From the IMG/VR virus record IMGVR_UViG_2690315831_000003: 51,350 nucleotides of DNA. One strand, 5' to 3'. A program made the translations under genes and the position numbers. The notes below the pieces were generated by a model. It did no database searches. It was not told the DNA's origin and saw only the letters and a program-made list of their open reading frames with translations. Shown here in pieces: positions 13,264 to 20,550 of the stretch (position 1 is the first letter of the stretch; each line of letters starts with the position of its first letter). This stretch comes from a virus. Its lineage: Duplodnaviria > Heunggongvirae > Uroviricota > Caudoviricetes.

Positions 13264-13626
13264 ATGCTCATAGATTTGGTTTTACCTTACCCGCCGACGG
13301 TGAACACTTACTGGCGACGCCGTGGCAGCACATATTTTGTATCAAAAGCCGGGGAGCGTTATCGCCGGGCAGTGGTGCTTATTGTTCGCCAGCAGCGACT
13401 GAAATTAAGCCTGTCCGGACGGCTGGCAATAAAAATTATTGCAGAGCCGCCGGATAAGCGCCGCCGTGACCTGGACAATATTCTGAAAGCACCGCTGGAT
13501 GCGCTGACGCACGCGGGGTTGTTAATGGACGATGAGCAGTTTGATGAAATCAATATTGTACGTGGCAAGCCAGTATCTGGTGGACGGCTGGAGATAAGAA
13601 TTACAGAGGTGGGTGTGCATGAATAA
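13264..13626 (+). CDS. rusA: Holliday-junction resolvase RusA
   Basis: 120 aa; motifs PDKRRRDLDNILKAPLDAL and GGRLEIRITEVG match recalled RusA. Confidence 0.85.
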   Translation: MLIDLVLPYPPTVNTYWRRRGSTYFVSKAGERYRRAVVLIVRQQRLKLSLSGRLAIKIIAEPPDKRRRDLDNILKAPLDALTHAGLLMDDEQFDEINIVRGKPVSGGRLEIRITEVGVHE

Positions 13627-14284
13627 CCAGTATTTACAGTTTGTTCGTGAGCAACTCATGATTGCCACTGCGGATCTTAGTGGGTCGACAAAAGGCCAGC
13701 TGGAAGTCTGGCAGGAAAATGCCCTGTTCGATACAGGGCGTTACAGACGCAAAAAAATTCGTTACCGCGATGAGGTAACCGGAAAAATGATCACGCGGGA
13801 TAATCCCCCGATCCCGGGTAAACAATCACTGGCGAAAGGCTCATCAATTGCCCTGGTCAGTCCGGTTGAGTTTTCGACATCATCATGGCGACGCGCCGTT
13901 CTGTCTCTTGAAGAACATCATAAAGCCTGGCTGCTGTGGTGTTACAGCGGTAGCATTTGCTGGGAGCATCAGATCGCGATAACGCAGTGGGCGTGGACTG
14001 AATTTAATGCTCAATCCGGTACCAGAAAAATTGCAGGAAAAACTCTGGTGCGCCTGAAGACGTTGATCTGGTTGGCGGCGCAGGCGGTAAAAGCTGAGCT
14101 TTTTGGTGGGGAAGGTTACGAATACCAGGAACTGGCGTTACTGGTGGGAGTAACAACCAAAAACTGGTCCAAGACATTTACTGGTCACTGGGTTGCAATG
14201 AAACACATTTTTCATCGGCTGGATAGTGAAGCTTTATTGTTGGTGGAGGGAACACGTTCAAAACAAAAGGCGGCATTTTCATAG
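13619..14284 (+). CDS. Late-gene antiterminator, Q-like
   Basis: Follows rusA and directly precedes a strong promoter plus intrinsic terminator pair (pR'/tR' architecture); Qin-like gene order. Confidence 0.6.
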   Translation: MNNQYLQFVREQLMIATADLSGSTKGQLEVWQENALFDTGRYRRKKIRYRDEVTGKMITRDNPPIPGKQSLAKGSSIALVSPVEFSTSSWRRAVLSLEEHHKAWLLWCYSGSICWEHQIAITQWAWTEFNAQSGTRKIAGKTLVRLKTLIWLAAQAVKAELFGGEGYEYQELALLVGVTTKNWSKTFTGHWVAMKHIFHRLDSEALLLVEGTRSKQKAAFS

Positions 14285-14291
14285 CAAAGTA

Positions 14292-14320
14292 TTGCAAAAG
14301 TAGATAAAAAGGCATATATT
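14292..14320 (+). promoter_or_regulatory. Late promoter pR'-like
   Basis: TTGCAA (14292-14297), 17-nt spacer, TATATT (14315-14320), immediately downstream of the Q-like gene. Confidence 0.6.
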
Positions 14321-14371
14321 TCGTGTAAATCTGATATTTTGCCGTTATTATACGTGATGGCAAAGCCACTA

Positions 14372-14397
14372 AAACCCGTGACCGAGCGGGTTTTTTA
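14372..14397 (+). terminator. Intrinsic terminator tR'-like (Q antitermination target)
   Basis: AAACCCG-tgaccgag-CGGGTTT followed by TTTTTT, about 55 nt downstream of the -10 box. Confidence 0.65.
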
Positions 14398-14537
14398 CCC
14401 CCCAAAAAATGGCATAGACATTAAACGTGATGACGATTGTGCCAATACTTTCTCCATCAATGACGCCCCTTGACTGCATGGAATCCAATTTGTTATGTAA
14501 TGTGTGTTGATATTTTTGAGTTGTTAATGGTGTTACT

Positions 14538-15251
14538 ATGGATGACAGTGCTCTGCTCAGAAACTCTTCACTTTTTGTTGCTTATATGGGCTGTCTCGGA
14601 TGGGGGAGCGCTTATTTCTATGGATGGGGTACTTCATTTTACTATGGCTTTCCATGGTGGGTTGTCGGGGCTGGTGTCGATGATGTAGCACGAAGTTTGT
14701 TTTATGCTGTGACAGTTATTGTTATATTCCTTATTGGATGGGGAGTTGGTATTGTTTTCTTTTTGGGCATAAAACAAAAGCGCAATATACAAAATTTGAG
14801 TTTTATCCGGCTTTTTCTCGCGATATTGCTGCTTTTTATTCCACCTGTTCTGGAGTTTTCTGTAATTCATCAGCATGTTGAGCCAGATGTACTGATTTTC
14901 TGCGTTCTTGCTGCCTTTGCAATCACGCTTTTTGTCAGGTCTGGAAGAAGACTTGTTTCAGTCAAATGTTTTTCGGAAATGTCTGTTATTCGCCATCACC
15001 GAATTGAGTTCATGATGGCTGGGTTTATGATTTATTTCTGGGCATTCTCTCTTATTGCCGGTTGGTACAAACCACAGTTTAAGAGGGAATATCAGGCGGT
15101 CCACTATGAGAATGTATGGTATTACATTATTGCGCGCTATGATGATCGTCTGGTGTTATCGAAATCATACAGGAGTGGGGGTAAGAAATTCGTTATATTT
15201 AATAGCGGAAATATTAATGATTTTGAAATTAATATTGTCAGAGTACGTTAA
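14538..15251 (+). CDS. Hypothetical polytopic membrane protein (late-region cargo, low GC)
   Basis: 237-aa ORF in AT-rich DNA; aromatic-rich hydrophobic segments (FYGWGTSFYYGFPWWVVGAG and others). Confidence 0.5.
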   Translation: MDDSALLRNSSLFVAYMGCLGWGSAYFYGWGTSFYYGFPWWVVGAGVDDVARSLFYAVTVIVIFLIGWGVGIVFFLGIKQKRNIQNLSFIRLFLAILLLFIPPVLEFSVIHQHVEPDVLIFCVLAAFAITLFVRSGRRLVSVKCFSEMSVIRHHRIEFMMAGFMIYFWAFSLIAGWYKPQFKREYQAVHYENVWYYIIARYDDRLVLSKSYRSGGKKFVIFNSGNINDFEINIVRVR

Positions 15252-15424
15252 AATTTCCTGAGTAATAAAGATTTTACTGCCCGGCATTGAGCGGTTTTTT
15301 TATGCCAGAAAAATGGTGCAGTACATAAAATGTGCAGGTGGTTATTAATACCGGTCTTTCAGCTTGCTGGCTTTTTTGACAAGAGTTATTGGTGTGTCAC
15401 GTTAACCGGAAAAGGGAAAAAGAC

Positions 15425-15622
15425 ATGCTGAAACAGCAGGATATGACAGAAACCGCCAGAGCAGTTTTTAATGAATTAAGTGCCACCGAACCGGCGACAG
15501 TCGGGGAGATTGCACAGAATACGTACCTTTCACGCGAACGCTGCCAGCTAATACTGACCCAGCTTGTTATGGCGGGTCTGGCAGACTATCAGTTCGGTTG
15601 TTACAGACGCCTTCAGTCCTGA
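15425..15622 (+). CDS. Small winged-helix-like DNA-binding protein
   Basis: ATG 15425 with purine-rich RBS; ATVGEIAQNTYLSRERCQLILTQL resembles a recognition helix. Confidence 0.45.
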   Translation: MLKQQDMTETARAVFNELSATEPATVGEIAQNTYLSRERCQLILTQLVMAGLADYQFGCYRRLQS

Positions 15623-15632
15623 AGGCTTTTTT
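15604..15632 (+). terminator. Intrinsic terminator
   Basis: GCCTTCA-gtcc-TGAAGGC then TTTTTTATTT, overlapping the stop of the upstream small gene. Confidence 0.55.
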
Positions 15633-15772
15633 ATTTGTGGTAAATGGGCGGCTGGTGGGGGTTAGGGGCACTCACCAGCCATCTGCTCATGCGTCCGGAT
15701 CACAAGCAAACCTCAGGCCCACTGCTTTGCGCAAAAGCAGAATGAGCCTATCAGAGACAGGCTTAATGATCC

Positions 15773-16831
15773 ATGTTTAATACTGTAAAAATATCCAGTT
15801 GTGAGTTAATCAACGCTGACTGCCTGGAATTTATCCGGTCGTTACCCGAAAATTCTGTTGACCTGATAGTCACGGACCCGCCGTACTTTAAAGTGAAGCC
15901 TGAGGGCTGGGATAACCAGTGGAAGGGCGACGATGACTACCTGAAGTGGCTGGACCTGTGTCTGGCGCAGTTCTGGCGGGTGCTGAAACCTGCCGGAAGT
16001 CTTTACCTGTTCTGTGGCCATCGCCTGGCATCTGACATTGAAATCATGATGCGTGAACGCTTCAGTGTGCTGAACCATATTATCTGGGCAAAGCCGTCCG
16101 GACGCTGGAACGGGTGCAACAAGGAAAGCCTGCGGGCGTATTTCCCCGCCACAGAGCGCATTCTGTTCGCGGAACATTATCAGGGGCCGTATCGCCCGAA
16201 AGATGCCGGGTATGAGGCGAAGGGCAGGGCACTGAAACAGCATGTGATGGCCCCGCTGATTTCTTACTTTCGTGATGCGCGTGCTGCCCTGGGGATAACG
16301 GCAAAACAGATAGTGGATGCCACAGGAAAGAAAAACATGGTGTCGCACTGGTTCAGTGCCAGTCAGTGGCAGCTACCGAACGAAAGCGATTATCTGAAAT
16401 TACAGGCGCTGTTTGCCCGGGTGGCAGAAGAGAAGCATCAGCGGGGGGAACTGGAGAAGCCCCACCACCAGCTGCTGGAGACGTATACTTCACTGAACCG
16501 GCAGTATGCGGAACTGCAGAGTGAATATAAGCATCTGCGGCGGTATTTTGGCGTGACGGCGCAGGTGCCGTACACGGATGTGTGGACGCATAAACCGGTG
16601 CAGTACTATCCCGGGAAACATCCGTGCGAAAAACCGGCAGAAATGCTGCAGCAGATAATCAGCGCGAGCAGTCGTCCGGGTGACCTGGTTGCAGATTTTT
16701 TCATGGGGTCGGGTTCGACAGTCAAAGCCGCGATGGCGCTGGGGCGGCGTGCTACAGGCGTTGAGCTGGAGACTGAACGTTTTGAGCAGACGGTCAGGGA
16801 AGTTCAGGATTTAGTCAGTCAGAACGGATGA
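15773..16831 (+). CDS. Orphan DNA methyltransferase (N6-adenine or N4-cytosine, beta-class)
   Basis: DPPY motif near N-terminus (VTDPPYF) and FxGxG motif near C-terminus (FFMGSGST); no adjacent restriction endonuclease gene. Confidence 0.85.
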   Translation: MFNTVKISSCELINADCLEFIRSLPENSVDLIVTDPPYFKVKPEGWDNQWKGDDDYLKWLDLCLAQFWRVLKPAGSLYLFCGHRLASDIEIMMRERFSVLNHIIWAKPSGRWNGCNKESLRAYFPATERILFAEHYQGPYRPKDAGYEAKGRALKQHVMAPLISYFRDARAALGITAKQIVDATGKKNMVSHWFSASQWQLPNESDYLKLQALFARVAEEKHQRGELEKPHHQLLETYTSLNRQYAELQSEYKHLRRYFGVTAQVPYTDVWTHKPVQYYPGKHPCEKPAEMLQQIISASSRPGDLVADFFMGSGSTVKAAMALGRRATGVELETERFEQTVREVQDLVSQNG

Positions 16832-16871: not shown

Positions 16872-16947
16872 GGCCCTTTAGCTCAGTGGTGAGAGCGAGC
16901 GACTCATAATCGCCAGGTCGCTGGTTCAAATCCAGCAAGGGCCACCA
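16872..16947 (+). tRNA. tRNA with CAU anticodon (Ile2/ileX-like or Met)
   Basis: Cloverleaf folded by hand: acceptor GGCCCTT/AAGGGCC, D-arm GCTC-AGTGGTGA-GAGC, anticodon loop CTCATAA, T-loop TTCAAAT, 3' CCA. Confidence 0.85.
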
Positions 16948-16956
16948 TATCACATA

Positions 16957-17033
16957 CCGCCATTAGCTCATCGGGATAGAGCGCCAGCCTTCGAAGCTGG
17001 CTGCGCGGGGTTCGAGTCCTCGATGGCGGTCCA
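16957..17033 (+). tRNA. tRNA-Arg (UCG anticodon)
   Basis: Acceptor CCGCCAT/ATGGCGG, anticodon stem CCAGC/GCTGG with loop CTTCGAA, T-loop TTCGAGT, 3' CCA; unusual C1-G72. Confidence 0.75.
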
Positions 17034-17311: not shown

Positions 17312-17740
17312 ATGTATTGCCGTGCTGTACCGGTTCTTGTTTTGATATTAGCCAGTCTGACAACTGGCTGCACAAAAGATGTATCGACAAATAATTATGA
17401 TGCTTCTCTGTATCACTCAGATAAATTAATAAAGTCGCAAAATTTGAGCTCATCGGAACGTACCCCTGATGCCAGTGAAGAAATCCGGCAGTATGCCATT
17501 CAGGTCAGGAAAGCCATAGAAGAACAGTTAAAGGATGCGAGTAAGTATTCAGGAAAAGAGTGTTCACTGAGAATGTATATGGCCCCGAATGGTCTTCTGC
17601 TACAGGTTAAAAGAGAAAGCGGTGATCCCGATTTATGTCGTGAAGCGATGAATGCAGTAAAGAATGCTGATATACCATCACCACCGTCTTCAGGAGTATA
17701 TAAAGCATTTAGAAATGGCGTGCTGGATTTTAAACTCTGA
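17312..17740 (+). CDS. Lipoprotein with TolA C-terminal (domain III)-like domain
   Basis: Signal peptide plus lipobox LTTGC; C-terminal SKYSGKECSLRMYMAPNGLLLQVKRESGDPDLCREAMNAVKNADIPSPPSSGVYKAFRNGVLDFKL parallels recalled E. coli TolA III; AT-rich context. Confidence 0.7.
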   Translation: MYCRAVPVLVLILASLTTGCTKDVSTNNYDASLYHSDKLIKSQNLSSSERTPDASEEIRQYAIQVRKAIEEQLKDASKYSGKECSLRMYMAPNGLLLQVKRESGDPDLCREAMNAVKNADIPSPPSSGVYKAFRNGVLDFKL

Positions 17741-17877
17741 CAGGGGGAGAAGATTTTCTCCTGTCCTGATGATTTTGGGGCGCTGGAAAGATATTGTGCT
17801 GTGAAGTGTTAAATCCCTCACAATTCAGTAAGTTGACAGTTGCCTGTCAGACTGAGCATTTGTTAAAAAAATTTCGC

Positions 17878-18053
17878 ATGGTGAATCCCCCTGTGCGGAG
17901 GGGCGACTGGTGAACGGTATGATCTCTTTGATGATCGTAAGCGAGAATACGCGGGTTTGGTGTCACCGGGCTGAACTCACCGGGAGGCACCCGGCACCAT
18001 GCTCATGGTGATACAGAAATGCGGCTTCAGCCCCTCTCCGGAGGGGCTTTCTT
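17878..18053 (+). ncRNA. Putative sRNA, repeat unit A
   Basis: Promoter TTGCCT (17840-17845) / TAAAAA (17864-17869); terminator GCCCCTCTCCGGAGGGGC + T-run at 18030-18052; ORFs across the unit not conserved. Confidence 0.4.
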
Positions 18054-18060
18054 ATGGACA

Positions 18061-18128: not shown

Positions 18129-18210
18129 TGGCGAATAATACCCTACAGTAATCACTCTGCGCAATAGCGTGGCCTTTTTCGAATTGCGGGCTGTAGTCTC
18201 CCTTCTGCCG

Positions 18211-18372
18211 GGTGTCCTGGTTGCAGATTTCTTCATGTGGTAGGGTTCGGCAGTTAAAGCAGCGATGGCGCTGGGGCGTCGTGCAACTGGCGTTGAGCTG
18301 GATACCGGGCGTTTTGAACAGACTGCGCAGGAAATCAGGGATGTATTTAGCGGGAGCGGTTTGCAGAAGTAA
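18211..18372 (+). pseudogene. Duplicated 3' fragment of the methyltransferase gene
   Basis: About 160 bp homologous to 16679-16831 (MTase C-terminus), with an in-frame stop and no start. Confidence 0.6.
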
Positions 18373-18435: not shown

Positions 18436-19161
18436 ATGGATGTTGCCTGCTCTGTGGTCCTGATTCGCTATCCGATAGATATTTTTCTTGAAAAAGAAAA
18501 AGTTTCACTCGATGCCGGAAGTGTTATGCTTGTTGCCAGAAATATAAGAGGGCTTTTCTGTGCTTATGCCGACAGAGTGAAAATGGCAGATATAAGTAAC
18601 AGCGTCGTCAATCAGTATCTGGAAAGGGAGTGTGAACTGACGGAGTATACACCGACAAAAATGCCTCTTTATTTGATGTCTGATATTTACAATACGGAAC
18701 TGGCGGAGGCTTTAATAACCCGGCATAGTGAATCCAGTGATACTTTGAAGGATTTCTCTGTTATAACCGCATTTTCATGTATCTCCTTATTTGCAACAGA
18801 CAGACGTCTGCCATTATTTTTGTCCGGTGCTGTAAATAATATCAGCTGTAAAGTAAGGGCTATAATTCAGACCGACATATCGGCAGGCTGGATGCTTGGT
18901 GTGATTGCATTACAATTGCATATGAGCGAAAGCTTGTTGAAGCGAAAACTTAAGGATGAAGGTTATAGCTTTAGTCGGTTGTTGCTGGAGGAGCGAATGC
19001 GTGTTGCTGTTAATCTTGTATGTTTCCAGCGAGAGTGTGGACAAGCGATAGCGGAAAAATGTGGTTACTCAAGTAAGTCCTACTTCATTTCTGTATTTCA
19101 CCAGTATTATGGTGCACCACCTGAGAGCTATGCATATTTGCAGAAAGCAGACGTTATCTGA
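18436..19161 (+). CDS. AraC/XylS-family transcriptional regulator (cargo)
   Basis: 241 aa; C-terminal dual-HTH AraC signature region; AT-rich locus. Confidence 0.7.
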   Translation: MDVACSVVLIRYPIDIFLEKEKVSLDAGSVMLVARNIRGLFCAYADRVKMADISNSVVNQYLERECELTEYTPTKMPLYLMSDIYNTELAEALITRHSESSDTLKDFSVITAFSCISLFATDRRLPLFLSGAVNNISCKVRAIIQTDISAGWMLGVIALQLHMSESLLKRKLKDEGYSFSRLLLEERMRVAVNLVCFQRECGQAIAEKCGYSSKSYFISVFHQYYGAPPESYAYLQKADVI

Positions 19162-19529: not shown

Positions 19530-19852
19530 AACATATCCTGTATATTTATGTTGTTACATACAGGCGCTTTTAGTATCTGCCGCACGGCAGTTGTACTTCA
19601 GAATAAGATGCTTTTGTGACTGGTGGTGTTGTATCTGGGGTTAGCCAGTAGGCAGGTTCAGAGAGTCCGGTGGTAATTATGTGTATGCAGTGGTTGTTGC
19701 TGTACCGTGGGCAAGTTCTGGAACTGGCTTCGTCCATTGTAGATGATTGTTAGCTGGATATCAGTTACCTCATGGAAATGTTAAATGACTCACAATTCGG
19801 TTGATGGGCTATTGTCTGATCGATGGAAGTCTTGTAAAAACGAGCCAGCATA

Positions 19853-20012
19853 GTGAATCCCCCTGTGCGGAGGGGCGTCTGACATGGTCTCCATAGCGAT
19901 GGTCACAATACGCAGATTCAGTAGTCAGGCTGAATCTACCGGGAGGCACCCGGCACTATGCTGCTTATGGTGTATACATAGCGATCGGCCCCTCTCCGGA
20001 GGGGCTTTTTTT
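19853..20012 (+). ncRNA. Putative sRNA, repeat unit B
   Basis: Same conserved 5' and 3' blocks, divergent middle; terminator 19988-20012. Confidence 0.4.
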
Positions 20013-20111
20013 GTGCGGGAAAAGGCTGTGTTGTTAAGTGTTAAATTCCTCACAGTTCAGATGGTTGATGCTTGCCTGTCTGAGGGGGAGTTGTTAAAAA
20101 AGTTCTGCATG

Positions 20112-20282
20112 GTGAATCCCCCTGTGCGGAGGGGCGACTGGTGTGATTTGCATCTTTTCTGTTGTAGGCAATGCAAACGCGGGTTCAGGGACACCAGACT
20201 GGACTCACCGGGAGGCACCCGGCACCATGTTCATGATGATACAGATACGCAGTGTCAGCCCCTCTCCTGAGGGGCTTTTTTA
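20112..20282 (+). ncRNA. Putative sRNA, repeat unit C
   Basis: Near-identical to unit A over the first ~35 nt and the 3' hairpins; terminator 20258-20282. Confidence 0.4.
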
Positions 20283-20381
20283 TGCAGGAAAAACGCTGTG
20301 TTGTGAAATGTTAAATTCCTCACAGTTCAGATGGTTGATGCTTGCCTGTCTTACGGGGAGTTGTTAAAAAAGTTCTGCATG

Positions 20382-20544
20382 GTGAATCCCCCTGAGCGGA
20401 GGGGCATATCAGCGCAGGTGTTTCTACTCTATCCTTTCTGTGCGGGTTCAGGTGCTGATACTGAACTCACCGGGAGGCACCCGGCACCATGCAGTATACA
20501 GAGATTAGGCATACATCCAGGCTCCTCATCGCAGGAGCCTTTTT
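20382..20544 (+). ncRNA. Putative sRNA, repeat unit D
   Basis: Conserved 5' box and internal hairpin; different terminator GGCTCCTcatcgcAGGAGCC + T5. Confidence 0.35.
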
Positions 20545-20550
20545 ACATGT

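Follow-up and report, generated by a model that had tools for sequence, protein, structure and literature searches.

The stretch analysed here, which we refer to as the window, is the 51,350-nucleotide (nt) virus record IMGVR_UViG_2690315831_000003 (Caudoviricetes), and the interval under study (14290 to 16831) directly follows a gene for an antiterminator, Q. The interval holds a candidate late promoter (pR′), the terminator tR′, a gene for a 237-residue membrane protein, a gene for a 65-residue winged-helix-like protein, a spacer of about 150 nt and a gene for a 352-residue DNA methyltransferase (methylase). All genes, promoters, terminators and RNA elements located below by window coordinates lie on the + strand. 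The three open reading frames (ORFs) listed in a preliminary description of this DNA were all found in place, but that inventory overlooked the junction of an insertion, the linkage of the last two genes and a structured RNA in the spacer between them. The interval is made up of two independent modules, the membrane-gene insertion and a cassette composed of the winged-helix gene, an RNA leader and the methylase gene. The kind of methylase is already known; what is new here is the three-part cassette with its unannotated RNA leader.

The methylase gene (15773 to 16831) encodes a β-class N6-adenine DNA methyltransferase of the M.EcoGI/M.EcoGII family, with a PF01555 match at 3.1e-43 over residues 29 to 340. 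The order of the motifs is that of the β class, TDPPYF lying near residue 35 and FMGSGST near residue 310. As had been described, the gene is an orphan: its neighbours are the winged-helix gene and two tRNA genes, and the adjacent cognate endonuclease of a Type II restriction-modification system is absent, both here and at the loci examined in other genera. The DNA of the gene is 97% identical to that of phage 1720a-02, the best phage match. Alignment with M.EcoGII over its full length gave 326 identical residues out of 349 (93%) with two gaps, a value that might be off by a few residues because the reference sequence was machine-read from a PDF (Table S1 of PMC11551740). M.EcoGII, which comes from a prophage of an O104:H4 strain, acts on adenine whatever the sequence context (Murray et al. 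2018, PMC5778455). Its native lysogen does not express it, growth slows when it is expressed, and phage 1720a-02 was named in the same work as carrying a very similar enzyme (PMC5778455).

One could envision that the methylase is instead a sequence-specific survivor of a decayed restriction-modification system, as among the PADLOC models a Type II methyltransferase fits it best (7.2e-163) and about 7% of its residues differ from M.EcoGII, several of them centrally. M.EcoGI and M.EcoGII, however, are themselves about as far apart (16 of 349 residues; PMC5778455), not even a remnant of an endonuclease gene adjoins the methylase at any locus examined, and the late-operon position of the gene is fixed across genera, and we regard such an origin as improbable. 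Most plausibly, by analogy with M.EcoGII, the methylase is made on induction and protects progeny DNA, a role proposed for it earlier that agrees with the M.EcoGII literature (PMC5778455). The check suggested at the time, a search for a methylation motif in the methylome of the lysogen, with failure to find one as the refutation, is the wrong test, because M.EcoGII-type enzymes are non-specific and are silent in lysogens. The absence of a motif is the expected result for a functional gene of this type, and in annotation practice no motif should be expected from such an orphan methylase in lysogen methylomes.

The first gene of the cassette (15425 to 15622) encodes 65 residues from its ATG and belongs to PHROG 331; the NCBI name is 'TrmB family transcriptional regulator'. 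Its description as a small winged-helix-like protein held, with family matches below threshold (TrmB at 9.6e-4, HTH_24, DprA_WH and MarR_2). No solved structural relative of the protein was found, and comparison with the PADLOC 2.0 models gave just a marginal partial match (4e-4). The terminator scan placed a hairpin with a T-run (15609 to 15626) over the stop codon, part of an intrinsic terminator at 15609 to 15632, which bears out the earlier observation that the small gene has a terminator of its own; in other genera the sequence differs but the hairpin is retained (alignment A6). Homologues of the winged-helix protein occur in Escherichia, Salmonella, Klebsiella, Citrobacter, Buttiauxella and Pantoea. 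In the Salmonella, Klebsiella and Pantoea prophages the gene is located between Q and the holin gene, approximately 150 nt upstream of a PF01555 methylase of about 350 residues, and three different families of Q are represented at those loci. Together, the winged-helix gene and the methylase gene make up one fixed cassette between Q and the lysis genes of Enterobacterales prophages. Upstream of the winged-helix gene, a block at 15330 to 15400 with the sequences CTTGCTGG ... ACAAGAGTTATTGGTGTGTCA is conserved from E. coli to Pantoea (alignment A5) and could be a promoter or another regulatory element.

Between the terminator and the methylase gene lies a conserved structured RNA leader of 134 nt (15642 to 15775), the 3′ end of which is the methylase start codon (15773 to 15775). 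Covariance model R1 matched it with 125 bits (E 2.4e-29), its single match in the whole window. The leader is laid out as a P1 hairpin (15650 to 15680) and a P3 hairpin (15722 to 15740), followed by two alternative sets of helices, and inspection of the sequence showed no visible Shine-Dalgarno sequence before the methylase ATG. Nucleotide identity to the window was 67 to 84% for the RNA, 57 to 80% for the winged-helix gene and 62 to 73% for the methylase gene; that is, the spacer is better conserved than either of the genes that flank it. A small ORF across the spacer (15598 to 15780) was considered and rejected because of single-base insertions and deletions across genera, for which reason the spacer is taken to be non-coding.

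The leader accompanies the cassette closely. BLAST found it in 28 of the 29 genome loci with a winged-helix homologue, at least 120 viral contigs gave a match in a pattern scan, and the covariance model detected it (50 to 144 bits) in every one of 69 viral contigs that a divergent Providencia winged-helix protein had led to, including loci whose winged-helix protein is just 33 to 37% identical to the Providencia query. Of 5426 complete E. coli genomes, 2863 carry the leader, in as many as eight copies each, and seven of eight E. coli matches sampled across the ranking lay at a gene annotated as a DNA methyltransferase. At one locus (L035, 3173 to 3299), the sole such case seen, the 3′ part of the leader is decayed and no methylase frame follows. 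No match of the leader to Rfam 15 (4227 families) was obtained in an 8-kb scan, with the window leader or with four divergent members, the best matches over 15590 to 15800 scoring 9.6 to 18.7 bits against gathering scores of 36 to 100, and the large RNA-discovery papers that were searched do not mention the leader. The 5′ strand of P1 contains a Chi octamer (GCTGGTGG, 15651 to 15658, + strand), which is invariant in E. coli-type members and absent from Providencia-type members. We rejected Chi as the feature that is being conserved, since the octamer is destroyed in the Providencia-type members while the P1 helix is kept by three double changes.

The pairing of the leader was examined in a model-fitted alignment of 56 sequences, with slid pairing partners and 500 shuffles as controls. 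Paired cells made up 88.8% of the total, as compared with 35 to 49% when the partners were slid, and both sides change in 23 of the 38 pairs. The number of compensatory cells was 160, against 54 ± 8 in the shuffles, none of which reached the observed value, but the leader sequences form few clades and many compensatory cells are therefore inherited, so that the shuffle control overstates the significance. P1 occurs as GGCUGGU/ACCAGCC, GACUGUA/UACAGUC, GACAGUG/CACUGUC and GGCUGGC/GCCAGCC, and the frequent G-U pairs are compatible with the + strand only. That the spacer forms a structured RNA is, on this comparative evidence, well supported.

RNAalifold, given 28 diverse members aligned without regard to structure, produced a fold that differs overall. 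In it the 5′ AUGGG pairs with CUCAU or CCCGU just after P1, a helix P5 joins A(G/A)GC with GC(C/U)U, and a long-range helix P6 joins G(G/A)UCA..AAG with CUU..UGAUC, the 13 nt before AUG; in the window, the 5′ strand of P6 (GGAUCA..AAG, 15697 to 15706) pairs with 15762 to 15771. On a structure-blind MAFFT alignment this fold was 95.0% paired and the first fold (P0, P2 and P4) 87.5%, neither value being reached in any of 500 shuffles. Among 105 unique sequences, P0 and its rival P0′ were each 100% paired and P5 and P6 95 to 96%. Variation is seen in both sets of helices, P6 occurring as AAG/CUU, GGA/UCU, GGA/UUC and AGG/CUU and the outer part of P2 as UUCG/CGAA, UUUG/CAAA, UUAG/CUAA, UAUG/CAUA and UUUA/UAAA. 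The sets {P0, P2, P4} and {P0′, P5, P6} are mutually exclusive. The P6-containing fold is the minimum-free-energy fold, or near it, in most members, and for one Klebsiella member the gap between the two folds is just 1 kcal/mol. The tetranucleotide GATC, a Dam site, stands directly before the methylase start codon (15768 to 15771, + strand) and hardly varies from genus to genus; at the RNA level it belongs to P6 and pairs with G(A/G)UC.

The most economical reading of these two sets of pairings is that the leader would be a two-state switch. It is weakened by a comparison of matched covariance models on held-out sequences, in which each fold won in one clade only, fold B being ahead by 6 to 12 bits in Providencia-type sequences and fold A by 1 to 7 bits in E. 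coli-type sequences. A possible alternative is a single pseudoknotted structure in place of two states. We read the leader as a translational switch that would limit the synthesis of a toxic methylase, the structure being seen in the covariation and the mechanism being inferred.

Three other explanations of the leader were weighed. One scenario is that it serves as a processing or stability element, or that it is a trans-acting small RNA cut from the late transcript. Several small RNAs come from prophage late regions of pathogenic E. coli, four copies of STnc100 lie 1 to 4 kb downstream in the window, and the long invariant single-stranded stretches of the leader are possible seed or protein-binding sites. 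There is also a precedent in Sy et al. (PMC7547250), where termination at tR′ is described as giving rise to a regulatory RNA. The leader, however, invariably stops right at the start codon of the methylase gene, the 13 nt before AUG belong to the 3′ strands of its helices, and apart from the decayed locus it is never separated from the methylase gene, and we therefore think that this scenario is unlikely. Somewhat less likely still is a ligand-sensing riboswitch that ties methylase synthesis to methyl-donor supply through, for example, S-adenosylmethionine (SAM) or S-adenosylhomocysteine (SAH). The multi-helix junction, the invariant unpaired nucleotides, the exclusive pairing sets and the position directly before a SAM-dependent enzyme would all suit such a role, but no riboswitch family in Rfam 15 matched, all SAM and SAH classes included, and a single methylase family is the sole associated gene, so that nothing about a ligand can be learned independently from the neighbouring genes. 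The weakest explanation holds that the spacer acts as DNA, either as operator or promoter palindromes (P1 and P3) for the winged-helix protein or through a Chi site that would guard rolling-circle DNA from RecBCD, and despite the near-perfect 16-bp palindrome formed by P3 in many genera (GCTTTAGCGCTAAAGC), the placement of Chi within P1 of the E. coli-type sequences, on a strand where by the orientation rule it should be active for RecBCD entering from cos, and an extended −10-like motif (TGn and GAAAAT) ahead of the leader in many sequences, it sits poorly with the loss of Chi from members that keep P1, with the many conserved G-U pairs (one nearly invariant in P4), which have no counterpart in DNA and fit one strand only, and with the covariation of pairs that lie some 65 nt from each other, a long-range feature for which an operator has no need.

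The Q gene (13613 to 14284) adjoins the interval and encodes a protein of the phage 82/434 type (PF06323 at 1.3e-90), which has 77% identity with the Q82-like protein that phage 434 encodes. It is followed within about 120 nt by a promoter-like site and an intrinsic terminator. The promoter-like site is the candidate pR′ (14292 to 14320), with a −35 sequence TTGCAA at 14292, a spacer of 17 nt and a −10 sequence TATATT at 14315 to 14320; it scored 9 of 12 matches in the promoter scan, and the block is kept right after Q in phage 434; its function as a promoter is putative. The terminator tR′ (14371 to 14396), as read from the sequence, consists of a hairpin formed by AAAACCCG and CGGGTTTT (14371 to 14394) and a T-run to 14396. 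It aligns with the depositor-annotated terminator of phage 434, and the stem is retained despite base changes. Sequences resembling a −10 element are present in the early transcribed region. The preliminary description had placed the interval downstream of pR′ and tR′, both of which actually lie inside it, and had assigned the genes to a Q-dependent late operon, an assignment that agrees with the conservation of Q, the promoter-like block and the terminator in phage 434.

The interval of 2.5 kb is found with full coverage and 98.8 to 99.9% identity in 160 complete E. coli genomes, largely of locus of enterocyte effacement (LEE)-negative Shiga-toxin-producing lineages such as O113:H21, O91:H21 and O22:H8, and because the stretch recurs in this way the gene arrangement is no product of chance. 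The RefSeq gene order of one matching genome is lambdoid: DUF968, RusA, Q, two hypothetical genes, DNA methyltransferase, two tRNAs, TolA-domain protein, a methylase fragment, an AraC-type regulator, a SASA esterase, holin and lysozyme. Among sequenced phages, relatives are found only from about 15290 onward (253 records, 81 to 97% identity), and nearly all of them are Shiga toxin 2 (Stx2) phages, in which the same small ORF, methylase gene and tRNA genes are followed by stx2. We conclude that the window is an stx-less relative of the Stx2 phages, that is, a lambdoid prophage like those that carry Shiga toxin, and that the interval is the promoter-proximal part of its Q-dependent late operon. 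For this class of prophage the three genes are mostly ordinary cargo, the methylase having been characterised in a near-identical relative.

The membrane gene (14538 to 15251) belongs to PHROG 1521 (5.4e-86), and its family goes under the Pfam label PF27470 'TfpB'. Four to five hydrophobic spans were predicted in its product, as would be expected of the polytopic membrane protein first described. The GC content is about 0.40 over 14200 to 15400 and 0.50 to 0.55 on either side; the AT-rich block reported earlier is thus confined to the part with the membrane gene and does not extend to the methylase gene, which has 52 to 58% GC. The label PF27470:TfpB is precomputed on all 104 homologues, one of which is 96% identical to the window protein. 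The protein had no match in the copy of Pfam that was searched, which was without the PF27470 model, and none among the NCBIfam models. The family is small: a set of 1.84 billion proteins yielded 75 representatives at 50% identity, and many of these are fragments. The family ranges over the Enterobacteriaceae, with distant members in Neisseria and Pasteurellaceae that all bear the name 'hypothetical' in their sources. Members are carried on Shigella virulence plasmids and on a Salmonella IncFII plasmid, and phage 434 has a homologue (CPT_434_68, deposited as 'putative membrane protein', 56% identical) at the same position after its Q82-like Q. Literature searches on TfpB found unrelated uses of the acronym only, and none for Moraxella; tfpB is presumably an ORF of the Moraxella pilin inversion region. 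A first AlphaFold model, built with 39 close homologues, was poor, with a predicted local distance difference test (pLDDT) score of 59.9. A second model, with distant relatives added, reached 79.7 and has five helices and a C-terminal domain of five β-strands.

Several features set the membrane gene apart from its surroundings. The sequence after its stop codon (15280 to 15330) repeats the sequence after tR′ (14380 to 14430) with the hairpin decayed, and comparison with this segment and with phage 1720a-02 identifies 15280 to 15301 as a decayed second copy of the tR′ region that forms the right junction. Homology to the Stx2 phages starts exactly at this decayed copy (about 15290). As read from the sequence, with its low GC content, its flanks of tR′ and the decayed tR′ copy and its absence from the Stx2 phages, the membrane gene is a separate insertion. 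A possible σ70 promoter of its own was read at 14470 to 14499 (TTGACT, 18 nt and an extended −10 sequence TGtTATGTA), and the blocks TTGAC and TTTGTTATG are conserved upstream of the homologue in phage 434, which suggests that this is probably the gene's own, weak promoter. We regard the gene as a moron-type insertion just after tR′ that encodes a TfpB-family inner-membrane protein. Of the usual marks of a moron, foreign composition and patchy presence were observed; the promoter is a reading of conserved sequence, and the downstream terminator is degenerate.

The preliminary description suggested that the membrane protein could be a superinfection-exclusion or abortive-infection factor made by the prophage. 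The gene does occupy a classic moron position, with AT-rich foreign composition and a possible promoter conserved in phage 434, and the family is carried by prophages, virulence plasmids and islands. This idea found no backing in the searches, as no PADLOC 2.0 defence-system model matched the protein and structure searches with its model gave no meaningful match among solved or viral predicted structures. The occurrence of family members near lpxR in Citrobacter rodentium and near plasmid enterotoxin genes equally suggests an envelope- or virulence-linked role, and we consider a function in exclusion rather doubtful. On E. coli plasmid contigs (L006 to L009, 6001 to 6714) a 76%-identical gene of the family is located about 900 bp from the heat-labile enterotoxin genes, divergently oriented, and a few kilobases from the STb gene, with flanking insertion sequences. 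On the C. rodentium chromosome, outside prophages (L003, 4863 to 6717), a family member adjoins lpxR, the gene for lipid A deacylase. In phage 434 (L010, 737 to 3788) Q is closely flanked by lpxR on its upstream side and by the TfpB homologue on its downstream side. The linkage of lpxR with the TfpB family may hint at a role related to the envelope.

Taken together, we think it fairly probable that the interval is the start of a Q-dependent late operon that has received a moron insertion and that carries a methylase cassette under a translational-switch leader. The gene identities, the cassette linkage and the conservation and covariation of the RNA on which this reading builds were all observed. 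In the lysogen, transcripts from pR′ would stop at tR′, and those that read through would meet two more terminator-like sites before the methylase gene (15280 to 15301, which is degenerate, and 15609 to 15632). Because of these sites, which with tR′ make three between pR′ and the gene, we propose that the toxic methylase, the prophage location of which was confirmed, is silent in the lysogen. After induction, Q-modified RNA polymerase would read through, and the methylase would then methylate adenines across the replicating phage DNA before it is packaged, with the proposed consequence that most of the restriction systems of the next host would fail against the progeny. The leader would set the amount or the timing of methylase translation and so spare the host premature damage. 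In its off state the 13 nt immediately before the start codon would be paired with the upstream segment, and in its on state GAUC(C/U)AUG would be left unpaired. The first candidate for the selector of the fold is the co-inherited winged-helix protein; a metabolite or the methylase itself might act in its place.

Some points weigh against this reading. The read-through of the terminators, the timing of expression, the protective role, the control of translation and its trigger are all parts that we infer from the sequence. The second of the terminator copies, at 15280 to 15301, is degenerate, and the consensus promoter scan made no call at 14470 to 14499, where the membrane gene would have its own promoter. 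Some of the approximately 23 differences from M.EcoGII fall in the central target-recognition region, and a narrower specificity of the methylase is therefore possible. A bolder proposal, which we put forward tentatively and with less confidence than the late-operon reading itself, is that the winged-helix protein, the RNA and the methylase form a self-limiting circuit, in which the RNA might be an undescribed protein- or ligand-responsive switch that licenses a burst of adenine methylation across the genome, and does so in the late lytic phase only.

The region downstream of the cassette has features of its own. The methylase gene is followed, as in the Stx2 phages, by two tRNA genes with the anticodons CAT and TCG (16872 to 17033; ARAGORN and the Rfam tRNA family). 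The first (16872 to 16947) was called tRNA-Met (CAT) by ARAGORN and tRNA-Ile by RefSeq, and the second is tRNA-Arg in RefSeq; annotation of the CAT tRNA as tRNA-Ile would be in keeping with an ileZ-type tRNA that is lysidine-modified, like that of Stx phages. At the position of stx2 in the Stx2 phages lies a gene (17312 to 17740) for a 142-residue protein that combines a lipoprotein-like signal peptide with a TolA C-terminal domain (PF06519, 5.7e-23). As a decoy in the periplasm, such a protein could presumably block filamentous phages or colicins that depend on Tol, which is speculation on our part. Downstream of the tRNA genes, four full-length copies of STnc100 (RF02076, 119 to 172 bits) were found at 17847 to 18059, 19819 to 20014, 20078 to 20287 and 20349 to 20550, the last three in tandem just before the esterase gene. 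The 3′-terminal 150 nt of the methylase gene recur, with 80% identity, at 18208 to 18359 (compare 16676 to 16827), where RefSeq annotates a pseudogene fragment. The placement of the tRNA, TolA-domain and STnc100 block between the complete methylase gene and this 3′ remnant suggests recombination between two late regions. The next gene (18436 to 19161) encodes a 241-residue AraC-family regulator of PHROG 1450, closest to YdeO/GadX (NF007407, 1.6e-34, below the cut-off), which we take to resemble the acid-stress and secretion regulators encoded by prophages of O157.

The cassette is of interest beyond this prophage. The leader occurs in more than half of the complete E. coli genomes and across Enterobacterales prophages, and it is an unannotated RNA family worth curating. 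A conserved and apparently two-state RNA offers a handle on how phages deploy an enzyme that is toxic to the host if it is mistimed. Many Stx2 phages have the cassette between pR′ and stx2, in the path of the late transcript with the Shiga toxin genes, and every late toxin transcript would therefore cross it; if so, it could affect toxin output. M.EcoGII is a widely used laboratory enzyme, and its published description (PMC5778455) mentions neither the winged-helix gene upstream nor the structured leader.

The window methylase shares with M.EcoGII as well as with M.EcoGI the β-class order of motifs, a lambdoid prophage as carrier and the lack of a partner endonuclease. It has 352 residues as compared with 349 in M.EcoGII, and some of the substitutions between them may be reading errors in the source table. 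The arrangement of the cassette resembles that of the controller (C) proteins of restriction-modification systems, which are likewise small helix-turn-helix proteins encoded just upstream of a DNA-modification gene. It differs from them in that there is no endonuclease to be timed, in that the sub-threshold matches of the small protein are to winged-helix (TrmB/MarR-like) families, and in that a terminator and a structured RNA are located between the two genes. The leader in turn resembles cis-acting mRNA leaders with two folds, such as the expression platforms of riboswitches and the lambda cIII mRNA, which exists as two conformers, in having exclusive pairings, one of which occupies the region before the start codon; unlike them, it has no match in Rfam 15 and no visible Shine-Dalgarno sequence to be masked.

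The membrane gene is comparable to the lambda-type morons bor, lom and stx, which are also AT-rich extra genes beside a late-region terminator and absent from close relatives, except that its product is an unrelated polytopic protein of the TfpB family and that its own promoter is putative. The beginning of the late operon of phage 434 (OL657226) is similar to that of the window in its Q and in the conserved promoter-like block and terminator. In phage 434, however, the membrane gene is followed by genes for small membrane proteins and by an esterase gene, without the winged-helix/methylase cassette. The Stx2 phages (1720a-02, Stx2_95 and relatives, and phiP27) share the winged-helix gene, spacer, methylase gene and tRNA genes with the window at 87 to 97% DNA identity and in the same order after Q. 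They have a different Q and carry stx2 after the tRNA genes, where the window has the TolA-domain lipoprotein and the AraC-type regulator, and the window has in addition the membrane gene between tR′ and the cassette.

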